This document shows positions 5,752 to 18,161 of a DNA stretch of 18,161 nucleotides, piece after piece (the stretch's first letter is position 1; each line of letters begins with the position of its first letter). The position numbers were made by a program, and so were the translations under genes. Source of the DNA: Candidatus Cloacimonadota bacterium (lineage in GTDB: Bacteria; Cloacimonadota; Cloacimonadia; JGIOTU-2); contig JACNJR010000031.1 in the NCBI GenBank assembly GCA_014382495.1, positions 1 to 18,161 of the forward strand, read 5' to 3'. Under the pieces are notes generated by a model. That model was not told where the DNA came from and did no database searches. It worked only from the letters and a program-made list of their open reading frames with translations.

Positions 5752-7782
5752 TTAGAGAACTTTGCTCCCTTCCGGAATTTCTTTTTCTGGAATTAAGAGT
5801 GATAAATTTTCGCCATCAACTACCGCCAGAAGCATTGCTTCGGATTTTTCTCCTTTAATAATCGCAGGTTCCAAATTATTCAAAATCAAAATATTTTTCC
5901 CGATCAGTTCTTTCGGAGAATAATTTTTTGCAATTCCCGCAATGATTTGCTTCGTGATGCTTCCAATAGAAATTTGCAATTTAAGAAGTTTGTCTGCTTT
6001 TTTCACCTTTTCCGCTGCAATTATTTTTGCGATTCGCAAATCCAATTTCTGAAAAGTTTCAAAGCTAATTATCTTTTTTCCACTTGTTTTTTGTGGAATA
6101 TTATTCAGATTTTTCAATTTATTTACCTGCCTTTCAATCAAATCATCTGGAATTTTTTCAAATAAGGTTTCGATGTTTTGAATAATTATTGGTTTATCTG
6201 ATTTTGCAGAAAGTCCGTTCCAACCGTATTTTAAGATTGATTTGTCAAATCCCAACATTTTCCATAATTTTTTTGAAGATGATGGAATAATCGGATAAAT
6301 TACAATTGCCAAATTCCGAATAATTTCCCCACAAATAAACATCATTTCTGCCGTTGACTTTCTATCTGTTTTAATTGTTTTCCACGGAATTGTATTATCG
6401 AAATACTGATTGCCAAATCTCGCAAGGTCAATAATCATTTTACACGCTTTTCTTACTTTGAATGTCTGATAAAGCTGTTTGATTTTTTCCCTTATATCAG
6501 AAATATTCGTCAGAATTTCTTCGTTTTTATTGGAAATTTTTTGTGGCAAAGGAATTGTATGCTCGAAATGTTTATCTGAAAATTTCAGGACACGATTAAC
6601 AAAATTTCCAAAAGTATTCGCTAAATCTGTGTTATATTTTTCTTGAAATTCTTTCCAAACAAAGTCAGTATCTTTGTTTTCGGGAGCATTTGCTGCGAGA
6701 TAATATCTTAAAGGAATTTCAGAAAATTCTTCTAAATACTCATTTATCCAAACTGCATAATTTTTACTCGTGGAAATTTTATTTTTCTCTAAGTTCAGAT
6801 ATTCATTCGCGGGAACATCGTCTGGTAATATGTATTTTTTGTCTTGACCCATAAGCATTGCCGGCCAGATTATTGTGTGAAATGGGATATTATCTTTTCC
6901 AATAAAGTGGATCAATTTCGTATTTTTATCAAACCAATAATCTCTCCATTTTTCAGGTTTTCCAATCTTTTCCGACCATTCAATTGTTGATGAAATATAG
7001 CCGATCGGAGCTTCAAACCAGACATACAGGACCTTTCCATCTGTATTTTCTGTCGGAACCGGAATTCCCCAATTCAAATCACGAGTAATTGCTCTCTCTT
7101 TTAGACCAGATTTCAGCCAGTTCAAAATGAACTTTTTTACATTATCTTTCCATTCAGTTTTTGACTCAATCCATTTTTGAAGCTTGTCTGAAAATTTTGG
7201 CAAATTTAGAAACCAATTTGTCGTTTCACGAATTATCGGAGTGCTTCTGCAAGTGATACAAAGGGGATTTGTCAACTGAATTGCATCGATAAGTTTTCCG
7301 CAAGAATCGCATTGGTCGCCGCGAGCTCCTTCCGAATGGCAGAAAGGACATTCGCCTTCTACATATCTATCTGGAAGAAATCTATTGCAATTTTCACAAT
7401 ATAATTGCTCGTTTGTGTGAGTTTGTATGAAACCATTTTTATTTAAATCAGAAAAAAAATTTTGAGAAAGTTTATAATGTACTTTTCTGTCCGTTCCAGA
7501 AAAATTTTCAAATTGAATATCGAGCCCATCAAAAGCAGATTTGATTCGCTTATGATACTTATCAACGATTTTTCTTGGAGGCACATTTTCCTGTTCTGCC
7601 TTTATAGAAATTGGCGCTCCGTGTTCGTCCGTTCCGCAGATATAAATCACATCATTTCCGAGAAGTTTCTGAAATCTAACAAAAATATCCGCGGGAAGAT
7701 ACGCGCCAGCGATATGTCCAATATGCAAATCGCCATTCGCATAAGGAAGTGCGCTGGTAACTAAGTATTTCTCTTTTGCCAT
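5752..7782 (-). CDS. metG: Methionine--tRNA ligase with C-terminal EMAP/tRNA-binding domain
   Basis: 676 aa. N-terminal PYANGDLHIGHIAGAYLPADIFVRF (HIGH motif) and a zinc-knuckle insertion (CENCNRFL ... CPFCHS ... CDSCGK). C-terminal OB-fold tRNA-binding domain (LDLRIAKIIAAEKV...). TAA stop at 5754-5752. Confidence 0.95.
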   Translation of the reverse strand: MAKEKYLVTSALPYANGDLHIGHIAGAYLPADIFVRFQKLLGNDVIYICGTDEHGAPISIKAEQENVPPRKIVDKYHKRIKSAFDGLDIQFENFSGTDRKVHYKLSQNFFSDLNKNGFIQTHTNEQLYCENCNRFLPDRYVEGECPFCHSEGARGDQCDSCGKLIDAIQLTNPLCITCRSTPIIRETTNWFLNLPKFSDKLQKWIESKTEWKDNVKKFILNWLKSGLKERAITRDLNWGIPVPTENTDGKVLYVWFEAPIGYISSTIEWSEKIGKPEKWRDYWFDKNTKLIHFIGKDNIPFHTIIWPAMLMGQDKKYILPDDVPANEYLNLEKNKISTSKNYAVWINEYLEEFSEIPLRYYLAANAPENKDTDFVWKEFQEKYNTDLANTFGNFVNRVLKFSDKHFEHTIPLPQKISNKNEEILTNISDIREKIKQLYQTFKVRKACKMIIDLARFGNQYFDNTIPWKTIKTDRKSTAEMMFICGEIIRNLAIVIYPIIPSSSKKLWKMLGFDKSILKYGWNGLSAKSDKPIIIQNIETLFEKIPDDLIERQVNKLKNLNNIPQKTSGKKIISFETFQKLDLRIAKIIAAEKVKKADKLLKLQISIGSITKQIIAGIAKNYSPKELIGKNILILNNLEPAIIKGEKSEAMLLAVVDGENLSLLIPEKEIPEGSKVL

Positions 7783-7959
7783 TTTTTTCTTATGATTTTA
7801 GCCACAGATTAGCACAGATAAACATTGATGGATATATTTTTAAGATATGTAGAAAAAAATCGTATTTAATGAATTTGTGTCAATTTTTTTATAGTTTTAG
7901 CCAAAGCAATTTCTATAATTTATGAAAATTGAGTTATTAGAAGGTCTAAAAAAATTTTC
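7783..7959 (-). promoter_or_regulatory. 177-nt intergenic leader/promoter region upstream of metG, containing short direct repeats
   Basis: The largest non-coding gap inside the minus-strand block. Holds a 10-bp imperfect tandem (gccacagatt/agcacagata, 7801-7820) and TTTTAGCCA at 7796-7804 and again at 7895-7903. No recognisable T-box or riboswitch core. Confidence 0.3.
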
Positions 7960-8217
7960 TTAATCTTCTTTTACAAGATAAACTATATCGTGCTCACGGA
8001 CATGCTCTTTAACTTTCACTCCGATGGAATCACCGATTTTTGCACTTTCAATCGAATCCTCTTCAATATGAATTGATTTCACCTTTTGTGTAAAATCTGT
8101 TGTATGCCCTTTGATATGGATTGTATCGCCGACATTAAGTTCACCCTTTGTGATGTCAATTCCAGCAACTGAAATGTGACCCCAAAAATGGATAATTTTT
8201 CCTATCTCTTTCTCCAT
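7960..8217 (-). CDS. Small stand-alone beta-barrel protein resembling translation-factor domain 2 (EF-Tu/IF2/SelB domain-2-like)
   Basis: 85 aa. GKIIHFWGHISVAGIDITKGELNVGDTIHIKG ... IGDSIGVKVKEHVREHDIV follows the G-x-V-x-x-G-x-I-x-x-G-D pattern of EF-Tu domain 2 barrels. GGAGA Shine-Dalgarno before the ATG at 8217. Confidence 0.4.
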   Translation of the reverse strand: MEKEIGKIIHFWGHISVAGIDITKGELNVGDTIHIKGHTTDFTQKVKSIHIEEDSIESAKIGDSIGVKVKEHVREHDIVYLVKED

Positions 8218-8266
8218 AATTTCTCCATTTTATTTTAGTGATTCTTACCAAATCTTTTTTTCGAAA

Positions 8267-9061
8267 TTATTTGGTTTTGGTCTTTTCTTTAATAACTGAT
8301 TTGATTAATTCGGTTGGAATTTTGCCTTTCTTCATAAATGATTTTACAAGATCAATTGGGATTGGGAAAACAATAGTTGAATTCTTTTCTGAAGCAATTT
8401 CAGTAAGAGTTTGCAAGAATCTGAGTTGAATTGAAGTTGTATTTTTGCTCAGCACTTCAGCGGCTTTTGCAAGTTTTGTGGATGCTTGGAATTCTCCCTC
8501 TGCATGAATAATTTTTGCTCTTCTCTCTCGTTCTGCTTCTGCCTGTTTTGCCATTGCTCGTTGCATTGTTGCCGGAAGTTCAACATCTTTTACTTCAACA
8601 ATACTCACCTTGATACCCCACGGATCGGTTCGCTCATCAATAACCTCTTGCAATTCCTGACTAATCTTCTCTCTATGCGAAAGAAGGTCATCAAGTTCGG
8701 ATTTTCCGAGAATATTTCGCAAAGTCGTCTGGGCAATTTGTGAAGTTGCTTGATAGTAATTTTCAACTTTTACAACTGCATCTTCCGGATTAAGAATACG
8801 AAAATAGACCACTGCATTGACTTTTACAGGCACATTATCACTTGTAATAATATCCTGAGGTGGCACATCCATCGTGACAGTTCGCAATTCAACTTTTACC
8901 ATTTTATCAATAAACGGAATGAGGAGAAATAATCCAGGACCTTTTGCGCGCAATAATCTTCCAAGACGAAATATCACGCCTCTTTCATATTCTCGCACAA
9001 TTCTGATTGCTTTGGAAAGAAATATTAAAGCCAAAATTATGACAATAATTGTTACATTCAT
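8267..9061 (-). CDS. SPFH/band-7 (stomatin/prohibitin-like) membrane protein
   Basis: 264 aa. N-terminal transmembrane helix ([14 protein letters not shown]), then the band-7 core [16 protein letters not shown] ... [24 protein letters not shown], and a C-terminal Ala/Glu/Arg coiled coil ([22 protein letters not shown]). GGAGGT Shine-Dalgarno before the ATG at 9061. Confidence 0.9.
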
Positions 9062-9147
9062 CTTTTACCTCCGTTTTTTTTATTTGATTTCAAAAAAATA
9101 TTCCAGAAATATGCTGTCAATTTATTTTATTATTTTATGAAAAAATT

Positions 9148-10158
9148 TTATCCAATTTTCTTTTTGGTATATTTTATCAATTTTTCAATTAAATCTTTTG
9201 ACCTGATTCCTTCTGCTTCTGCTGCGAAATTGAGTAAAATTCTATGTTGCAAAATCGGATTTGCGACAAACTCAACATCTTCAATTGTCGGAGTATATCT
9301 GCCATAAAGTGCGGCTCGAGTTTTTGATGCCAGAATAAGATATTGTGAAGCTCGCGGTCCAGAACCCCAATTTACCCATTTTTTCACAAAATCTGGCGCG
9401 TTTTTTTCATTTGGTCTGGAAATCCGCGCAAGATTCACAGCAAAATTAATGATATGTTCCGAGACAGGAATTTTGAATATGAATTTCTGAAGTTTAGTGA
9501 TTTCATCTCCAGCAATCACATTATTTATTTCAGGAAATTCCTGACTTGTGGTGAATTCTGCAATCTGCTTCTCCTCTTCAAAACTTGGATAATCAATATC
9601 GATATGAAAGATAAATCTATCTAATTGTGCTTCTGGAAGTGGATATGTGCCTTCCTGCTCAATCGGATTTTGAGTTGCAAGCACGAAGAATGGCGGCTCA
9701 AGTTTGAAGGTATTATTTCCAGCCGTAACTTCCCTTTCTTGCATTGCCTGAAGGAGCGCTGATTGAGTTTTGGGCGGAGTTCTATTTATTTCATCTGCTA
9801 AAATTATATTCGCAAAAATCGGTCCTTTCACAAATTCAAAAACTCGCTTTCCCGTTGTTTTATCTTCTGCCAAAATATCTGTGCCAGTGATATCTGAAGG
9901 CATCAAATCTGGTGTGAACTGGATTCTGCTAAATTTCAAATTGAGAACTTTTGAGATTGTGCTGATAAGTAAAGTTTTTGCCAATCCGGGAACTCCAACG
10001 AGAAGGCAATGTCCGTTTGCGAATAGAGAGATTAAAAAATATTCAATTACTTTATCTTGTCCGATAATTACTCTTCCAATTTCGTTCACAATTTTTTCTC
10101 GAATTATGCTGAGATTTTTGACCGTTTTTGCATCGTTCTTATCAATAATTTCTTTCAT
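9148..10158 (-). CDS. MoxR-family AAA+ ATPase
   Basis: 336 aa. Walker A GVPGLAKT, Walker B ILADEINR, and MoxR-typical VLATQNP and PLPEAQLDRF segments. Length and architecture match the MoxR/RavA-like AAA subfamily. Confidence 0.9.
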   Translation of the reverse strand: MKEIIDKNDAKTVKNLSIIREKIVNEIGRVIIGQDKVIEYFLISLFANGHCLLVGVPGLAKTLLISTISKVLNLKFSRIQFTPDLMPSDITGTDILAEDKTTGKRVFEFVKGPIFANIILADEINRTPPKTQSALLQAMQEREVTAGNNTFKLEPPFFVLATQNPIEQEGTYPLPEAQLDRFIFHIDIDYPSFEEEKQIAEFTTSQEFPEINNVIAGDEITKLQKFIFKIPVSEHIINFAVNLARISRPNEKNAPDFVKKWVNWGSGPRASQYLILASKTRAALYGRYTPTIEDVEFVANPILQHRILLNFAAEAEGIRSKDLIEKLIKYTKKKIG

Positions 10159-10196
10159 ATAAATTCCTTTTGCAATTTAATTTAACATTCTGAAAA

Positions 10197-11210
10197 TCAA
10201 TTTTTATATTTTTCACTTTCAGATATATTTACATTTCTGAAAGTATCTACTACTTTTACGCCGATATAACTAAAACTGAACAGACCGATTGCGGTTATCA
10301 TAATTCCTGTCAATAAATGCGCAAAACCGACGACGGCGCTGACAAGTTCTCGATTCAAACCGAGTCCAACTGAAAAAATAATCAGCATAATAAGTTCATT
10401 GCTGCCGATCTGCGCTGGCGGACAGGGAATGATGTAAGAGAGGTAAATCAAAGTATATCCAAACAAGATTATTGGAAATGTCAAATTTTCTCCGAACGCC
10501 TTGAATATGAGAAGAAAATATAATGCATCGATTAGAACAGCGCCAAAAGTCAGCAAAATTACTACTGGCAAAATTCTTGAATGATGCTTGAACAATCCGA
10601 TTCCCTCGACAAAATTTTCGATAATTTCAAAAAATTTTATCTCATATTTTTCTGGAATGAAAAAGAGAATTTTATGAAATAATTTCACTACAAATTTTTT
10701 ATTTATGGCAGTCAAAACAAGGATTCCTAATCCGAAAAGGACAACAGCAAGAAGGAGTATGATGAGAATTAGAAGCGGTTTAGCGATATTAGGTTGGAGA
10801 ATTGGAATCAAAATTATCACGACAAAAATCGAAAGTGAATCGAAGACCTTATCGATAAAAACTGACGGAAGCGTTTTCGATATTGCTTTTCCATTAGTTC
10901 GTTTAATAAAATAACTTTTGGCAAATTCCCCTGCGCGAATCGGAATGATATAATTCATAAAAAATCCCGCCATCCAAATTAAATACGCTTTTTTTATCGA
11001 TAAATTGCAAACAGGTTTCAGAATTATTCGCCATCGAATCGAACGGATAAAGTATGAAAATAGATATAAAACAGATGCAATTAGAACATAAACGAAATTT
11101 AATTTTCTGAAATAATCTGCTACCTCTTTTACATTTATGAATTTTATCCAAACGAGCAGAAGGATAATTCCCAATAAAATTCCGATGATTATTTTCTTTT
11201 TATCTGACAT
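10197..11210 (-). CDS. Integral membrane protein of the lysylphosphatidylglycerol-synthase transmembrane/flippase-like domain family (UPF0104, MprF N-terminal-like)
   Basis: 337 aa, about 8 hydrophobic helices. The N-terminal helix followed by FRSIRWRIIL and the overall pattern resemble the LPG-synthase TM domain. No catalytic (aminoacyl-transferase or glycosyltransferase) domain is attached. Confidence 0.65.
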   Translation of the reverse strand: MSDKKKIIIGILLGIILLLVWIKFINVKEVADYFRKLNFVYVLIASVLYLFSYFIRSIRWRIILKPVCNLSIKKAYLIWMAGFFMNYIIPIRAGEFAKSYFIKRTNGKAISKTLPSVFIDKVFDSLSIFVVIILIPILQPNIAKPLLILIILLLAVVLFGLGILVLTAINKKFVVKLFHKILFFIPEKYEIKFFEIIENFVEGIGLFKHHSRILPVVILLTFGAVLIDALYFLLIFKAFGENLTFPIILFGYTLIYLSYIIPCPPAQIGSNELIMLIIFSVGLGLNRELVSAVVGFAHLLTGIMITAIGLFSFSYIGVKVVDTFRNVNISESEKYKN

Positions 11211-11216
11211 TTTTGT

Positions 11217-12059
11217 TTATGTTTTAGTAAAAATCATATATTTATGATGTGCACAGAAGAATTTGATAAAATTAGGAGCAATTTTTTCAAACCAGTAATA
11301 TTTCATCATTCTGTTGGAAAAATCGGAATCTTTATTTGTATAATAATCTAAAATGCATAATTTTTCTTCATTTTTCTCTCTTTTGAGTTTTAACAGAAAA
11401 TCGAGGTGAAAAATTTTAAGAAACTCTCGCTTGTTCATTCCAATATCTGGCCATGGTGGACAGTCAATATAATTTCTCTCTACAAGTTTCCAATTCAAGT
11501 TTTTCATCTCTTTTATTATATTTTTTGGAACAATATTATCCTCTTTCAATTCTTTTTTCAATTCATTTCCAGAAATATATTTTTGGGAAATGTAGCCAAA
11601 TCCAAAACGATTGGGCACACAAATCCAAATCACCTTTTTCGTCACGCGTGTTAACTCTTTCAAAAATATTTCTAAACTATTCACGAACCAAAGAGCTGAA
11701 AAATTCCAACTTATATCAAAGCAATTATCTTCAAAGTTTAATTTTTGAAAATTTTCTTGAAAATAAAAATTAGTTTTTAATCCACAATTTTTCCATACAG
11801 AACGCACCATTTCTAATCGCTGTTTGTCATTATCAATCAGAGTAGCGGAAATGCCAGATTTTGCAACTGCTATAGAATTTATTCCGGTGATTCCCGTAAA
11901 ACCGAAGATTGGAACTTCTAATAGAGTTTCACACTTGTATTTTTTGATAATTTCTCGCAATTTGTTGTTCAAAATGATTCTTTCGTAACTTGAACCAAGT
12001 CCTTCATTTGGTTCTTCGGAGAAATAATTTTGCCAATTTTTCAAAATTGGAATTGCCAT
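11217..12059 (-). CDS. Putative class I SAM-dependent methyltransferase-like protein
   Basis: 280 aa. Possible motif I (LLEVPIFGFTGITGINSIAVAKSG), an acidic end of strand beta2 (ATLIDND), and motif IV-like FDISWNFSALWF. Weak call from pattern only. Starts 2 nt after the upstream gene's stop. Confidence 0.4.
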   Translation of the reverse strand: MAIPILKNWQNYFSEEPNEGLGSSYERIILNNKLREIIKKYKCETLLEVPIFGFTGITGINSIAVAKSGISATLIDNDKQRLEMVRSVWKNCGLKTNFYFQENFQKLNFEDNCFDISWNFSALWFVNSLEIFLKELTRVTKKVIWICVPNRFGFGYISQKYISGNELKKELKEDNIVPKNIIKEMKNLNWKLVERNYIDCPPWPDIGMNKREFLKIFHLDFLLKLKREKNEEKLCILDYYTNKDSDFSNRMMKYYWFEKIAPNFIKFFCAHHKYMIFTKT

Positions 12060-12061
12060 AA

Positions 12062-13042
12062 TTATCTGTCTGTTTTTTTATACCATTCTAAAACATACTT
12101 GAAATTCGGAATTGTGTTGTGCGATGTGATTTTTAAATCTTTTTCTGCTTGTGAAACATCATAATACCAACTTCTGGAAATCAGTTGTATGCGTGCAAAC
12201 CATAATTCATTCTTGATAATTTTTGAAAAAATAAATTCCAATACTCTAAACAGAAATGTCGGAATTTTTTTCCATTTTGGATAATTCTCACTTTTCAATT
12301 CAATATTAATGAAATTTGTTAATTTTTCTAATGAGACAGGAATTTTATCCGAAATATTGTAAGCATTTCCAGATTTGAGATTTTCATTTGCTGCATTTAT
12401 AAACGCAGAAGTCAGTGTTTCAACATCAATCATATTTATTTTAATATCTTGAGACGGACGTATCATCAGACCGTTATCAACCAAATTTATCAATTTGTAT
12501 GGAAATCCATAATCGCCTTTTCCATAAGTAATTGACGGACGAATGATGATAAGATTTAGCCCATTTTTGACTAATTTTTGAAGTTCGTTCTCTGCTTCGA
12601 TTTTAGTAAAATGATAGTAATTATCAGGTTTTCGGTTTGTGTTTTCATTTGGTGGAAGTTCATTTGGAATTGCGCCAAAAACCCCGACGGAACTGCAGAA
12701 AATCATTTTGCAATTATGTTTCAAACATTGTTCAGCAATATATTTTGTGGCATTTACATTTGTATCGTAATAATCTTTTTTAGAAAAATTTCTTCCTCCG
12801 CGAAGTGCTGCAATATGAAAAACAATATCAAATCTGATCTCACTAAAAATCTTTTCTATAAAATTTTGTGAATTCAGCTCGCCAAATTTACAAATTACTC
12901 CTTTGCTTTCAAATTTCTCATACCTTTCGACTTTCGTTTTCTCTCTAATTATCGCAACAATCCTATCATTTTTCTCTTCCAATAATTTTCTGCAAATGTG
13001 TCCGCCAATAAAACCTGTAATACCTGTGATTAAAATATTCAT
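12062..13042 (-). CDS. NAD-dependent epimerase/dehydratase (extended SDR family)
   Basis: 326 aa. N-terminal Rossmann motif ILITGITGFIGGHICRKL and the catalytic YxxxK (YHFTK). The length is typical of the UDP-sugar epimerase/dehydratase/reductase family. Confidence 0.85.
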   Translation of the reverse strand: MNILITGITGFIGGHICRKLLEEKNDRIVAIIREKTKVERYEKFESKGVICKFGELNSQNFIEKIFSEIRFDIVFHIAALRGGRNFSKKDYYDTNVNATKYIAEQCLKHNCKMIFCSSVGVFGAIPNELPPNENTNRKPDNYYHFTKIEAENELQKLVKNGLNLIIIRPSITYGKGDYGFPYKLINLVDNGLMIRPSQDIKINMIDVETLTSAFINAANENLKSGNAYNISDKIPVSLEKLTNFINIELKSENYPKWKKIPTFLFRVLEFIFSKIIKNELWFARIQLISRSWYYDVSQAEKDLKITSHNTIPNFKYVLEWYKKTDR

Positions 13043-13068
13043 AATGTTATCAAAACTGCAATAAATTT

Positions 13069-13860
13069 TTACGAAAAAAAGTTTTTCACTCTTTCTAAAA
13101 ATGAGGTTTTATATTTTTTTTCTTGATAAATCTGTCTGAAGATATTTTCAAATGGCTCGTTATTAATAACCTTTTTGGGATTTTCATACATTAACAATTC
13201 AGCCAAATTTTCAGAATATTTTTCACTCAAATATTGATATGCAGCATCCATCAAAATGGGGCGTTTAGCCAGATTGTGAACATCCGAGGCGACAAAATGT
13301 ATGCATCCCACTTCCAACATTTTATGCGTCAGTACTTGAATTTTTTCACCATAATCTCCCAACAAACAACCGCAATTTGTCTGAATAAGAATGCCGCGAT
13401 TTGCAATATCAAGCAGAAAATCAAAATTATTTATAAATTGAAAATATCGCTCTGCATGCGCTAAAATTGGGATAAAATCTTCAAATTGAAATTCGAAAAG
13501 TGTCTCAAAGAAATTATTTGGAAATCTCTGCAAATCGGATTCTACCAAAATATATGAACTGCCTGCTAATGATAATTTTTCTCTTTTTACTTTTTCAATA
13601 AGATTTGGTTCAAAATATATTTCTGCACCTTTATGGATTTTTATTTGCAATTTGTTTTTGACGATTTTTGCGGATAATTCATCAAATTTTTCATCAATGG
13701 TTTTTCGATTATTGTCATAAGAACCGGAAATTATATGCGGAGTTACAATCACTTCTTTTACGCCTTGATTTATTAATTCATTAAGAATTTCAAAACTTTG
13801 CTCAAAATTTTCAGCACCATCATCTAATCCCGGCAAAATGTGCGAATGAATATCAATCAT
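13069..13860 (-). CDS. CpsB/CapC-type PHP-domain phosphoesterase (Mn-dependent protein-tyrosine phosphatase family, YwqE-like)
   Basis: 263 aa. The diagnostic N-terminus MIDIHSHILPGLDDGA and additional His clusters (VTPHII, ILAHAERY, ASDVHN) are typical of the PHP fold. ATG 13860-13858 lies 2 nt after the GGGPS stop. Confidence 0.85.
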   Translation of the reverse strand: MIDIHSHILPGLDDGAENFEQSFEILNELINQGVKEVIVTPHIISGSYDNNRKTIDEKFDELSAKIVKNKLQIKIHKGAEIYFEPNLIEKVKREKLSLAGSSYILVESDLQRFPNNFFETLFEFQFEDFIPILAHAERYFQFINNFDFLLDIANRGILIQTNCGCLLGDYGEKIQVLTHKMLEVGCIHFVASDVHNLAKRPILMDAAYQYLSEKYSENLAELLMYENPKKVINNEPFENIFRQIYQEKKYKTSFLERVKNFFS

Positions 13861-13862
13861 TT

Positions 13863-14618
13863 TTATCCTTTATGAATTGCGTCTGCAAAATTTTGGATTA
13901 GATTTTTATCGGGATTTTTTTCAAACGCGTGCCCTATCACGACAAAATCTGCTCCAGCATTTACCTTTTTTCTGGCATCATCTGGAGTTTTTATACCGCC
14001 GCCAACAATCAGCGGAATGTCCATATTTTTTTTCACAGCATCAATCATATTAACTGGGATAGACATTTTTGCTCCACTTCCTGCATCCATAAAAACAATT
14101 TTCATTCCAAGATATTGAGCGGCAAGAATGTGTGCAATTGCAATGTCATTTTTATCTCTTGGAATTGGAGTGCTGTTGCTCATATATTGAACGGAAGTTA
14201 GCGAACCAGATTCGATGATAAGATAGCCCGTTGGGATTGTTTCAACTTGCAGTTTTTTTATTAACGGAGCTGCTCTAACTTGCTCTCCAATAAGCAATTG
14301 CGGATTTCTGCTGCTTAATAAACTCATAAATAAAATTGCATCGGCGTGCGGAGAGCCCAAACTAAATATTCCCGGAAAGATGATTATAGGAATTTTTATC
14401 TGTTTTTTGATAGCAATTACAGTGGAATCGAAATCGTTTTTCAGCATAATACTTCCGCCAACGAAAATCGCATCAGCACCCGATTTTTCACAATCTTTGG
14501 CAAGCTCGGCAGATTGTTGTAAATCCTGTTTATCGGAATCTATCAAGCAGAAAAACCCAGCTTTTTTTCTGCGAATTACTTCCAACAAATAATTGTAAAT
14601 TTTATTATTTTTTACCAC
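13863..14618 (-). CDS. (Geranyl)geranylglyceryl-phosphate synthase, PcrB/GGGPS family TIM-barrel prenyltransferase
   Basis: 251 aa and collinear with B. subtilis PcrB and archaeal GGGPS: GADAIFVGGS, IIIFPG, KIVFMDAGSGA, IPLIVGGGIKT, ADFVVIGHAFE. Start is GTG (14618-14616), preceded by GTAGGAGAA. Confidence 0.8.
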   Translation of the reverse strand: MVKNNKIYNYLLEVIRRKKAGFFCLIDSDKQDLQQSAELAKDCEKSGADAIFVGGSIMLKNDFDSTVIAIKKQIKIPIIIFPGIFSLGSPHADAILFMSLLSSRNPQLLIGEQVRAAPLIKKLQVETIPTGYLIIESGSLTSVQYMSNSTPIPRDKNDIAIAHILAAQYLGMKIVFMDAGSGAKMSIPVNMIDAVKKNMDIPLIVGGGIKTPDDARKKVNAGADFVVIGHAFEKNPDKNLIQNFADAIHKG

Positions 14619-14639
14619 AAATTCTCCTACTTTTTTACA

Positions 14640-15482
14640 TCAAAAATATTGTGAAAACCAAAGCACAAGCAAGATTACAAACATATTGACTTTCATCATT
14701 TTTGAAGAAAAAGACGCTTTTTTTTTACTGAATTTCAGAAATAAATTTGATAGATTTATCGGAATAAAAAAGCCGACGAGCAGAATCAAAATTGCAAAAA
14801 CCGAAATTTCATAAAACCTTTCGTATCCAAAAATTGTCAAGATTGTAAGAAAAATCCAGAATAAAAATAGTAAAACGAAGGTAACATTTTTCCCGAAAAT
14901 TATCGGAATTGTTTTCGCATTATTTTTTTTATCGCCTTTAATATCTTCCAAATCCTTCACAATTTCACGAATAATCGTAAAAACAAATGCACAAAAAAAT
15001 ATGAAATATGAATTCGCGATATTTTCATTTGCCAATCCGCCGTAAAGGAATGCGGAAGCCGTAAAAAATGATACTAAAATATTGTCGAGAAATGTCAGTT
15101 TTTTCGCTTTATATGCGTAAATCCAAAGAAGAATTGAATTGCAAGAAGCGAGTAAAATCATCCAAAGATTTTTGAAGATGAAACTAATAATTATTCCGAA
15201 AATAAACATCAAAATTGCAAAATTTTTTGCAGATATTGGAGAAATTTTTCCGGAAGGTATTGCTCTTTTTGGTTTATTTATTTTGTCGATTTCAATATCA
15301 AAAAAATCGTTGATTACATATCCGGCAGCTGCTATAAATGATGCAGAAAGTGCGGCTAAAACAGGGAAAATCAAATTTGAAAAATCAAAATTTGTCTTCC
15401 AATAAGCTCCGAAAAGAACAGATATTGCGACAAAAAAAATATTAAAAGGTCTGGTAATTTTGAAGTACGAAATCAAACTCAC
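14640..15482 (-). CDS. UbiA-superfamily prenyltransferase, most consistent with digeranylgeranylglyceryl-phosphate synthase (DGGGPS-like)
   Basis: 280 aa, about 8-9 TM helices. First Asp-rich motif NDFFDIEIDKINKPKRAIPSG (NDxxDxxxD) and a second acidic patch REIVKDLEDIKGD. The short length and N-terminal FKITRPFN match DGGGPS rather than the longer quinone enzymes UbiA and MenA. GTG start (15482-15480) overlaps the upstream TAG by 1 nt. The DGGGPS assignment rests partly on adjacency to GGGPS. Confidence 0.7.
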   Translation of the reverse strand: MSLISYFKITRPFNIFFVAISVLFGAYWKTNFDFSNLIFPVLAALSASFIAAAGYVINDFFDIEIDKINKPKRAIPSGKISPISAKNFAILMFIFGIIISFIFKNLWMILLASCNSILLWIYAYKAKKLTFLDNILVSFFTASAFLYGGLANENIANSYFIFFCAFVFTIIREIVKDLEDIKGDKKNNAKTIPIIFGKNVTFVLLFLFWIFLTILTIFGYERFYEISVFAILILLVGFFIPINLSNLFLKFSKKKASFSSKMMKVNMFVILLVLWFSQYF

Positions 15483-16369
15483 TACGGCACTCTATCCTGA
15501 ATCGTATCCAGAAAATTTAGTAACATGCTATTATTCGGAATATATTTTATGATATTTCTCGCATCGTGAATGAGTTTTAGTGCTTGCTTTTTCGACTCTT
15601 CAATTCCGAGCAAAACGGGATATGTAACCCGATTATTTTTGCTATCTTCGCCAGTTTCCTTTTCCAATAAATCATCTGCACCAATTTCGTCAAGAATATC
15701 GTCAATTACTTGATATGCCAAGCCGACATTTAGTGCGAAATCGCTCAAAGCGCTGGTAGTTTGCTCATTTGCGTTTGCAACAACACATGCCATTTCTTCA
15801 GCGGCTCGGAGAAGTGCGCCTGTTTTTTTTAGATGAATATCTCGCAAAACATGCAATTTTACTCTTCTTTTCGTAGAAAGCAATTCCACAACTTGTCCGC
15901 CAATCATCCCGCGAGTTGACGCTGATTGAAGAAGAATCTCGAGACAATCCAGCGAATGTTTTCTTTTTTTCATTTTCAAAATAGTTTCAAATGACTTGGT
16001 TATCAACGCATCGCCAGCTAAAATTGCAATCGCATTTCCAAATTTTTTGTGACAACTTGGCTTTCCTCTTCTCACATTTGCATCGTCCATAAATGGCAAA
16101 TCGTCGTGAATCAACGATGCTGTATGAATCATCTCGATGGCGCAGGCAAGTGGCATTATTTTTTGAATTCGGCGCGTGTCTCGACGCTTGATGAGCATTT
16201 CATAAGTTGCAATTAGAAGTAATGGGCGAAGTCGTTTTCCGCCAGCAAAAATCGAATATCTCATCGCTTCGTGAATTTTTTGTGGATATTTGCTTTTTGG
16301 CGATAAGTATTTATTGAGCGCTTTTTCAATTAACTTTTTTCTGCTATCAAAATATCTTTCTAAAATCAA
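15482..16369 (-). CDS. Short-chain polyprenyl diphosphate synthase, probably geranylgeranyl diphosphate synthase (type II, FARM with 2-residue insertion)
   Basis: 295 aa. FARM IHTASLIHDDLPFMDD and SARM YQVIDDILD. Ala and Ser occupy the -5 and -4 positions before the FARM, where C15-limited FPP synthases such as E. coli IspA carry an aromatic residue. This chain-length rule predicts a C20 or longer product. Start is TTG (16369-16367), preceded by GGAGG; an in-frame TAA at 16387-16385 closes the frame upstream. Confidence 0.88.
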   Translation of the reverse strand: MILERYFDSRKKLIEKALNKYLSPKSKYPQKIHEAMRYSIFAGGKRLRPLLLIATYEMLIKRRDTRRIQKIMPLACAIEMIHTASLIHDDLPFMDDANVRRGKPSCHKKFGNAIAILAGDALITKSFETILKMKKRKHSLDCLEILLQSASTRGMIGGQVVELLSTKRRVKLHVLRDIHLKKTGALLRAAEEMACVVANANEQTTSALSDFALNVGLAYQVIDDILDEIGADDLLEKETGEDSKNNRVTYPVLLGIEESKKQALKLIHDARNIIKYIPNNSMLLNFLDTIQDRVP

Positions 16370-16543
16370 TTGTCCTCCAAATTTTTATGCTTATTTTTAA
16401 ATTTAAAGTAAAAAGAAAATTTTGAAAAATTCTGTCAATGTTTTCTAAAAAAAATGCAGACGAAAAGCAAAATAAATTATTGACAAGATTTTCTAAACCG
16501 AAATAAAGAAGGATAAACTTTTCTGCAGAATCGGAATTTTTCT
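16370..16543. promoter_or_regulatory. Divergent promoter region between the isoprenoid/ether-lipid operon (minus) and the MFS transporter gene (plus)
   Basis: TTGACA on the plus strand at 16479-16484 has an AATAAA -10-like element about 16-17 nt downstream. Its reverse complement TGTCAA at 16433-16438 is the -35-like element for the minus-strand operon. Each is followed by TTTTCTAAA (16441-16449 and 16489-16497). Confidence 0.3.
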
Positions 16544-17776
16544 ATGAAATTAAATCGTAGTATTGTCGGCTGGGTCAGTTATGACTTCGCAAATTCCTCC
16601 TTCACAACTGTAATAATTACGGCTGTCTACAGTGTTTACTTCAAAGATGTTGTGGTTGGAAATGGCGATCGTGGCGATTTATATTGGGCAATTGCAATCA
16701 GCATTTCGATGCTCGTCGTTGCACTTTCAGCACCAATGCTTGGAGCAATTTCAGATTATTCGCAAACAAAAAAAAGATTTCTTATTTTATTCTGCTACAC
16801 ATCTGTGATTTTTACAGCACTTCTCTTTTTTGTGCGACAGGGAACAATTTTTTGGGGAATGCTTCTTTTCATTATTGCAAATATCGGATTTGAAGGTGGG
16901 AATGTTTTCTACAACGCATTTTTGCCAGAAATTACGGAGAAAAAAAATATCGGCAAAGTTTCTGGCTTAGGTTGGGGAATCGGTTATTTGGGCGGTTTGT
17001 CCGCTTTGGGATTATCGCTACTTTTGGTCGGAAAAAATATCGTATTAATTTTTCCAATGATTGCAATTTTCTTCGGTCTATTTGCGATTCCAATGTTTAT
17101 TTTAGTTCCGGAAAAAAGAGATTTGGATAGAAGAAAAATCAACTATCTTAAAGCTGGATATCAGAGATTATTACAAACTTTTAAACACATAAATAAATTC
17201 AAAGAATTGGGCAAATTTTTGGTCTCATTTTTTATCTATAATGATGGAATAAAAACCGTAATTGTTTTCGCAGCAATTTACGGCAGAGAGCGATTTGGAA
17301 TGAATTTTAACCAACTGATAATCTATATTATTTTTGCAAATATCACTTCATTTTGGGGAGCTATTTCATTCGGACATATTGTTGATAAAATTGGTGCAAA
17401 AAAGACAATATCCATCACTCTGATTATTTGGATTGCAGTTGTGATTTGGGCGTTTTTCTGTCCAAATATTTTGCAATTTTATGGAGTAGGACTTCTCGCT
17501 GGCGTTGCAATCGGTTCTTGCCAAGCAGCAAGTAGAAGTATGGTTTCTCTGTTAAGTCCAAAAGATAAGCAGGCAGAATTTTTTGGATTTTATGCGATGA
17601 GCGGAAAAGCCGCAGCAATTCTCGGACCAATTGTTTATGCACTTCTTGTTCTTCTTTTTCAGAGTCACAGATTCGCAATTTTGAGTATTGCATTTTTCTT
17701 CATTTTTGGATTTGTGATTCTTCAAACGGTTGATGAAAAATCTGGAATCGATGCAACAAAATCTCACTTGGAATAA
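16544..17776 (+). CDS. MFS transporter, UMF1 (Atg22-like) family
   Basis: 410 aa with about 12 predicted TM helices. The N-terminal WVSYDFANSSF is the conserved start of UMF1-family MFS proteins. There is a central cytoplasmic loop (EKRDLDRRKINYLKAGYQRL). Confidence 0.8.
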   Translation: MKLNRSIVGWVSYDFANSSFTTVIITAVYSVYFKDVVVGNGDRGDLYWAIAISISMLVVALSAPMLGAISDYSQTKKRFLILFCYTSVIFTALLFFVRQGTIFWGMLLFIIANIGFEGGNVFYNAFLPEITEKKNIGKVSGLGWGIGYLGGLSALGLSLLLVGKNIVLIFPMIAIFFGLFAIPMFILVPEKRDLDRRKINYLKAGYQRLLQTFKHINKFKELGKFLVSFFIYNDGIKTVIVFAAIYGRERFGMNFNQLIIYIIFANITSFWGAISFGHIVDKIGAKKTISITLIIWIAVVIWAFFCPNILQFYGVGLLAGVAIGSCQAASRSMVSLLSPKDKQAEFFGFYAMSGKAAAILGPIVYALLVLLFQSHRFAILSIAFFFIFGFVILQTVDEKSGIDATKSHLE

Positions 17777-17832
17777 AAAAAATTGACAATTCAAAATCAT
17801 CTTTCAAGAGATAACAAAAAGAGGTAAATATT

Positions 17833-18150
17833 ATGCTGAGAAATATTTTAATTTCGAAAATTCATCGGGCAACTGTTACAAAATGTGATTTAAATTATGT
17901 CGGAAGTATTACGATTGACAAAGAAATTTTGGAAAAAGCAGACATTCTCGAAAATGAAAAGGTAGAGGTCTTTAATATAAATAATGGAAACAGATTTCAG
18001 ACATATGTTTTTGTCGGGAAACCTGGAGGCGGGGAAAATATTATAAATGGTGTTGCTGCCAAATTGGGTCATTAAGGGGATAAAAACATAATTCTTAACT
18101 ATGCTTTTATGGATGAAAAGGGTGCAAAAAAAATATACTTACAATTTTAA
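17833..18150 (+). pseudogene. panD: Aspartate 1-decarboxylase (PanD) gene interrupted by an in-frame TAA at 18073-18075
   Basis: N-terminal [29 protein letters not shown] (Gly-Ser self-cleavage site) ... [23 protein letters not shown] ... [10 protein letters not shown], then TAA. The same frame continues GDKNIILNYAFMDEKGAKKIYLQF to TAA at 18148-18150, matching the PanD C-terminus (E. coli ...SVGDIVIIASFVTMPDEEA...). AGAGGT Shine-Dalgarno before the ATG. Confidence 0.8.
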
Positions 18151-18161
18151 ATCGTCGGTGT

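Follow-up and report, generated by a model that had tools for sequence, protein, structure and literature searches.

An in-frame stop codon in panD, at the right end of contig JACNJR010000031.1 of a Candidatus Cloacimonadota bacterium (GenBank assembly GCA_014382495.1), raises the question of whether the TAA records the loss of a gene, an unusual reading of a codon or a fault in the sequence itself. The window, by which we mean the whole stretch of DNA that was analysed, is the complete 18,161-bp contig of a metagenome-assembled genome (MAG), whose right edge cuts through panD. The initial annotation, made from these letters, offered three explanations for the stop: the gene had recently become a pseudogene, the assembly or sequencing was in error, or the stop is read through at a low level. 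The comparison with close relatives described below strongly favours the error and speaks against the other two, and the panD stop almost certainly belongs with the roughly two dozen sequencing or assembly errors that crowd the final 147 bases of the contig. The features discussed are collected in Table 1.

Table 1. Features of the window discussed in the text, with the evidence for each.
Feature	Position	Strand	Evidence
Three adjacent ether-lipid genes: GGGP synthase family, UbiA, polyprenyl synthase	13863-16369	-	Profile matches
5' part of panD judged reliable: codons 1-60, most of codon 61	17833-18014	+	PF02261; 0 differences vs L001; majority alleles
Aberrant contig tip, 147 nt, about 24 differences: 20 private substitutions, indels/garbled run, last-base mismatches	18015-18161		Comparison with all relatives
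In-frame TAA, codon 81; AAA (Lys) in 15/15 related loci	18073-18075	+	T-for-A at 18073
A-run (18126-18133), then scrambled sequence closing in a second spurious TAA (18148-18150)	18126-18150	+	Nucleotide and protein alignment

The frame that opens with an ATG at 17833 encodes a homologue of PanD, matching PF02261 (Asp_decarbox) over profile positions 1 to 100 of 115 (E=6.7e-38) and scoring 129.5 bits with the stop masked (cut-off 25); its in-frame translation from 17833 to 18159 gives 107 protein letters. The TAA is confirmed in the deposited sequence, and similarity to PanD lies in the same frame on either side of it, as had been described from the outset. The Gly-Ser autoprocessing site was likewise correctly said to be kept: Gly24-Ser25 is intact, and K9, H11, Y22, G24-S25, R54, T57, Y58 and N72 are invariant among 16 aligned sequences, that of the window included; K9, H11, R54, T57, Y58 and N72 count among the conserved catalytic residues. 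The PanD structures 2C45 (M. tuberculosis), 1PPY (E. coli) and 3OUG align from end to end with the PanD of the window, and the N-terminal 80 residues of the product align with 2C45, a pyruvoyl-dependent aspartate 1-decarboxylase, at E=8.6e-27. Unlike these known proteins, the frame as deposited ends at codon 81 and is scrambled past codon 100, and its C-terminal strands (GD-x-V-I-I..Y ... P-K-I-V) are incomplete, which we would ascribe to error in the sequence rather than to biology; the complete domain with its C-terminal strands is present in all 15 orthologous loci. The product ended by the TAA has 80 amino acids and is 38 residues shorter than the 118-aa orthologue, not about 25 as had been estimated.

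The 15 syntenic loci used for comparison (L001-L005 and L017-L026, with L001 as the reference locus) encode one or the other of two PanD variants, P0001 and P0121, and come from ENA assemblies ERZ247946xx, Logan assemblies of ERR133xxxxx runs and SRR19040528; four further loci, L006-L009, span the left part of the window. The best database match, P0001, is an intact PanD of 118 aa, and P0121, of the same length, differs from it in two of the last three residues only; the entries under P0121 include an NCBI MAG protein, MBL7108501.1. Nucleotide identity between the window and its relatives is 99.1-99.6% over thousands of bases (97.1% for the short locus L005), and gene order and gene lengths are those of the window. 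On the 3' side of panD the relatives carry DUF1573/rhodanese genes, panC (pantoate ligase, about 1.1 kb downstream), glmS and recO. In this region L005 has one 367-aa DUF1573/HYDIN-Ig/rhodanese gene (919-2022), and L001 and the other relatives have separate genes of 78 and 214 aa (10359-11447 in L001), which would be explained by structural variation among strains or by a difference in gene calling. GTDB genomes supplied only distant PanD genes, with at most 64% amino-acid identity, and a species-level representative was not found among them. An N-masked 54-nt pattern that fits both the window and the intact variants, validated beforehand on the window and L001-L005, matched neither form in JGI metagenome contigs or GTDB representative genomes, and this result does not discriminate between the two.

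The orthologues under P0001, P0121 and MBL7108501.1 are like the window in the first 182 nt of panD (identical to L001), in the MFS transporter upstream and in the DNA around the gene (99.2-99.6% identity); unlike the window, they have a lysine codon at position 81 and a frame that stays open through codon 118. The comparison of the orthologous codon in related genomes, suggested in the initial annotation, thus returned AAA at all 15 loci, so that the stop is made by a single difference. The TAA had been placed exactly where PanD homologues have a hydrophobic residue before the conserved GD. Among 120 homologues that position is in fact variable (P in 36, K in 19, E in 12, T in 11, and others), and the 15 closest orthologues all have the lysine there.

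Nor is the TAA the lone lesion that it had been taken for. The window differs from L001 at 58 positions of 7947-18014 (0.58%) and at none of the 643 nt of 17372-18014; beyond that point, 22 differences fall inside the BLAST alignment of 18015-18157 and two more at 18158 and 18161, a density of about 16%. At the background rate about 0.85 differences would be expected in 147 nt (Poisson P of about 1e-23). The differences grow denser as the tip is approached, with successive counts per 30 nt of 0, 3, 4, 4, 3 and 10. The same 22 differences are seen against each of the 15 relatives, which are monomorphic throughout the stretch: at every one of the 20 substituted positions all of them share one base and the window alone departs from it. 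Further upstream in panD the relatives are polymorphic at 17868, 17970 and 17991, and at each of these sites the window agrees with the majority of them. At the left end the opening 150 nt match four relatives without a mismatch, so the contig is not poor in general and the relatives are a valid yardstick.

The density of these changes bears directly on the possibility of a real, strain-specific pseudogenisation, in which a nonsense mutation and further lesions would have disabled panD and ended de novo beta-alanine synthesis. A stop and a frame disruption do exist in the deposited sequence, and the damage to conserved residues described below is what a neutral pseudogene would allow. The ratio of synonymous to non-synonymous changes, 5:9 in the tip as compared to 46:40 in the background, does not differ significantly (p=0.26) and is compatible with neutrality; it is not enlisted in favour of an artefact. 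Pseudogenisation would, however, have to account for some 16% divergence within 147 nt when the adjoining 643 nt, namely the first 182 nt of panD and the 461 nt upstream, are identical to L001 and the relatives lie only about 0.6% away genome-wide, and for a block of variants that coincides exactly with the end of the contig and worsens towards its tip. The spectrum of changes also differs from genuine polymorphism elsewhere on the contig: transitions and transversions number 7 and 13 in the tip, to which the indels are added, as compared to 46 and 12 with no indels in the background (Fisher p=5.6e-4). As none of the 20 variants has been seen in the 15 relatives, we consider decay of the gene in this strain highly improbable. 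It had been proposed that uniformly intact orthologues in sister genomes would point to strain-specific decay; here the orthologues are intact at all 15 loci, yet the position of the variants at the tip, their spectrum and their gradient are those of errors. DGR-like adenine-specific mutation was considered as well and rejected on inspection of the tip differences, where neither side shows changes restricted to A.

At the level of the protein, the tip brings eight sense replacements relative to the orthologue, and six of them (N69, V74, K77, G79, N85 and G97) introduce residues found in none of the 120 homologues. For instance, V74 falls in the NGAAA motif, and position 77, a lysine in the window, is arginine in every homologue. 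The G66 replacement is found in one of the 120. Only N84K matches a common state of the family and represents a shift towards the consensus.

These replacements are pertinent to a second possibility, namely that assembly joined to the contig 147 nt of genuine DNA from elsewhere, whether from a co-occurring organism of greater divergence or from a foreign tract brought in by recombination. The abrupt drop in identity at 18015, from 100% to about 84%, would fit such a junction, as would the strain heterogeneity just downstream in the relatives and the agreement of N84K with the common family residue. A genuine orthologue would nevertheless be expected to keep its frame and its invariant residues, whereas this stretch is broken by two stops, is scrambled in part and carries residues that none of the 120 homologues has. 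P0001 is itself the closest match to the variant C-terminal part, none better having been found in a database of 5.8 billion clusters, and the changes are rich in transversions and worsen towards the end. We therefore regard a chimeric tip as very unlikely. Much the same low probability attaches to the variant block being real, that is, to a hyper-diverged and disabled panD 3' end such as might remain from recombination with divergent DNA.

A scrambled part of the tip follows an A-run. At 18126-18150 the orthologue reads ...KKHNPKIIIVDD... and has an isoleucine where the window has its second TAA. The scrambled stretch can be fitted with 11 substitutions in 18 nt or, alternatively, with a 1-nt gap after the A-run that is offset by an extra base near 18149. 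It encodes 'IYLQF*' as compared to 'HNPKIIIVDD' in the orthologue, and the second TAA is thus also spurious; the gene had been taken to end there, at 18150, although the orthologue extends to 118 aa. The final in-frame codons of the window (IVG) re-align with the IVD of the orthologue.

The second stop has a bearing on translational recoding, whereby the TAA at codon 81 would be read through or reassigned and a full-length PanD made. The continuation of in-frame homology past the TAA counts in favour of such a mechanism. Readthrough would still run into the scrambled segment and the second TAA 75 nt further on, however, and the relatives have a plain AAA at codon 81. The initial annotation had judged codon reassignment unlikely, and rightly so: TAA closes 12 of the 17 genes in the window, at lengths that match those of the relatives. 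Scans of the whole window for tRNAs and Rfam families found no element, and thus no recoding-related RNA. Recoding of either kind has in our estimation a next to negligible chance of being correct.

We consider it very probable that a sequencing or assembly artefact at the tip of the contig accounts for the TAA. The clustering of the differences, their privacy to one assembly, the substitution spectrum, the gradient towards the end and the intact orthologues lead us to infer an origin in read quality or in assembly. The last 147 nt would then be the low-quality assembly tip of a metagenome-assembled contig; their length, close to that of a single short read, makes it most likely that only one error-rich read, or very few, carried the extension. 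The true codon at 18073-18075 would be AAA (Lys), and the TAA one of some 24 tip errors. The panD of the organism would most likely be intact, with 118 codons, as in its near-identical relatives, and from the length of the orthologue its end can be expected at about 18189, some 28 nt beyond the contig.

A reason for the contig to break at this place is suggested by the relatives, in which two haplotypes (5 and 10 loci, respectively) are found at panD nt 347-349 (L001 10347-10349), about 18 nt past the end of the window, with PanD C-termini that read ...IIEMK or ...IIAVK. This branch point is a plausible explanation for a break in the assembly graph. As the exact technical source of the errors, the tail of a poor-quality read, a tip left unclipped or a chimeric read may be considered. 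The pattern resembles the contig-tip errors of short-read metagenomes, which likewise appear as a private burst of mismatches and indels restricted to roughly a read length at a single terminus, worsen towards the end and have a random-like substitution spectrum; the density of some 16% lies towards the upper limit of such tips. For a typical Illumina read that survives into a de Bruijn-graph contig, about 16% of errors is a high figure, and this counts against the artefact, as do the shift of N84K towards the consensus and the synonymous to non-synonymous ratio, which is not significantly different from the background.

The errors have left a trace in the public record. The 80-aa product (17833-18075) has been deposited at NCBI as MBC8313057.1, 'MAG: aspartate 1-decarboxylase [Candidatus Cloacimonetes bacterium]', and a truncated PanD is thereby present in a public database because of errors at a contig tip. 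The protein occurs on one contig only and, among about 15 billion proteins, clusters with no other. An exact look-up of it among encoding contigs, in an index that does not include the NCBI contig, gave no record. We note that it is annotated as an ordinary aspartate 1-decarboxylase, under a name that carries no hint of truncation.

Two other regions of the contig merit mention. One of the three adjacent ether-lipid genes encodes a GGGP synthase family protein of 251 aa (TIGR01769, 217.8 bits, cut-off 161.55), the UbiA prenyltransferase has 280 aa and best matches DGGGP-synthase models, below their cut-offs, and the polyprenyl synthase, of the FPP/GGPP type, has 295 aa. Archaeal-type ether-lipid genes are already known from Ca. 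Cloacimonetes MAGs, where the same three have been found on one scaffold (PMC7852524). The other region, 7783-7960, is intergenic and strain-variable; it lies upstream of metG (5752-7782, minus strand) and is bounded on its other side by a small gene of 85 aa. The alignments to L006-L009 break off at 7787, and the point at which they are taken up again differs between loci (7733, 7895 or 7947). The stretch gave no Rfam or tRNA match, and a tandem repeat as the basis of the variability was rejected when only a trivial two-copy repeat of 10 nt was found.

If the variant block were true after all, the strain would be a beta-alanine auxotroph among a population that otherwise keeps panD and panC. 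As matters stand, the TAA is almost certainly an error and is therefore, with the same near-certainty, uninformative on gene loss. An in-frame stop that lies about a read length or less from the end of a contig calls for comparison with close relatives before a pseudogene or a recoding event is called. For the Cloacimonadota the result has little biological weight in itself, but it removes a false signal of the loss of a CoA-precursor pathway from a MAG of this group.
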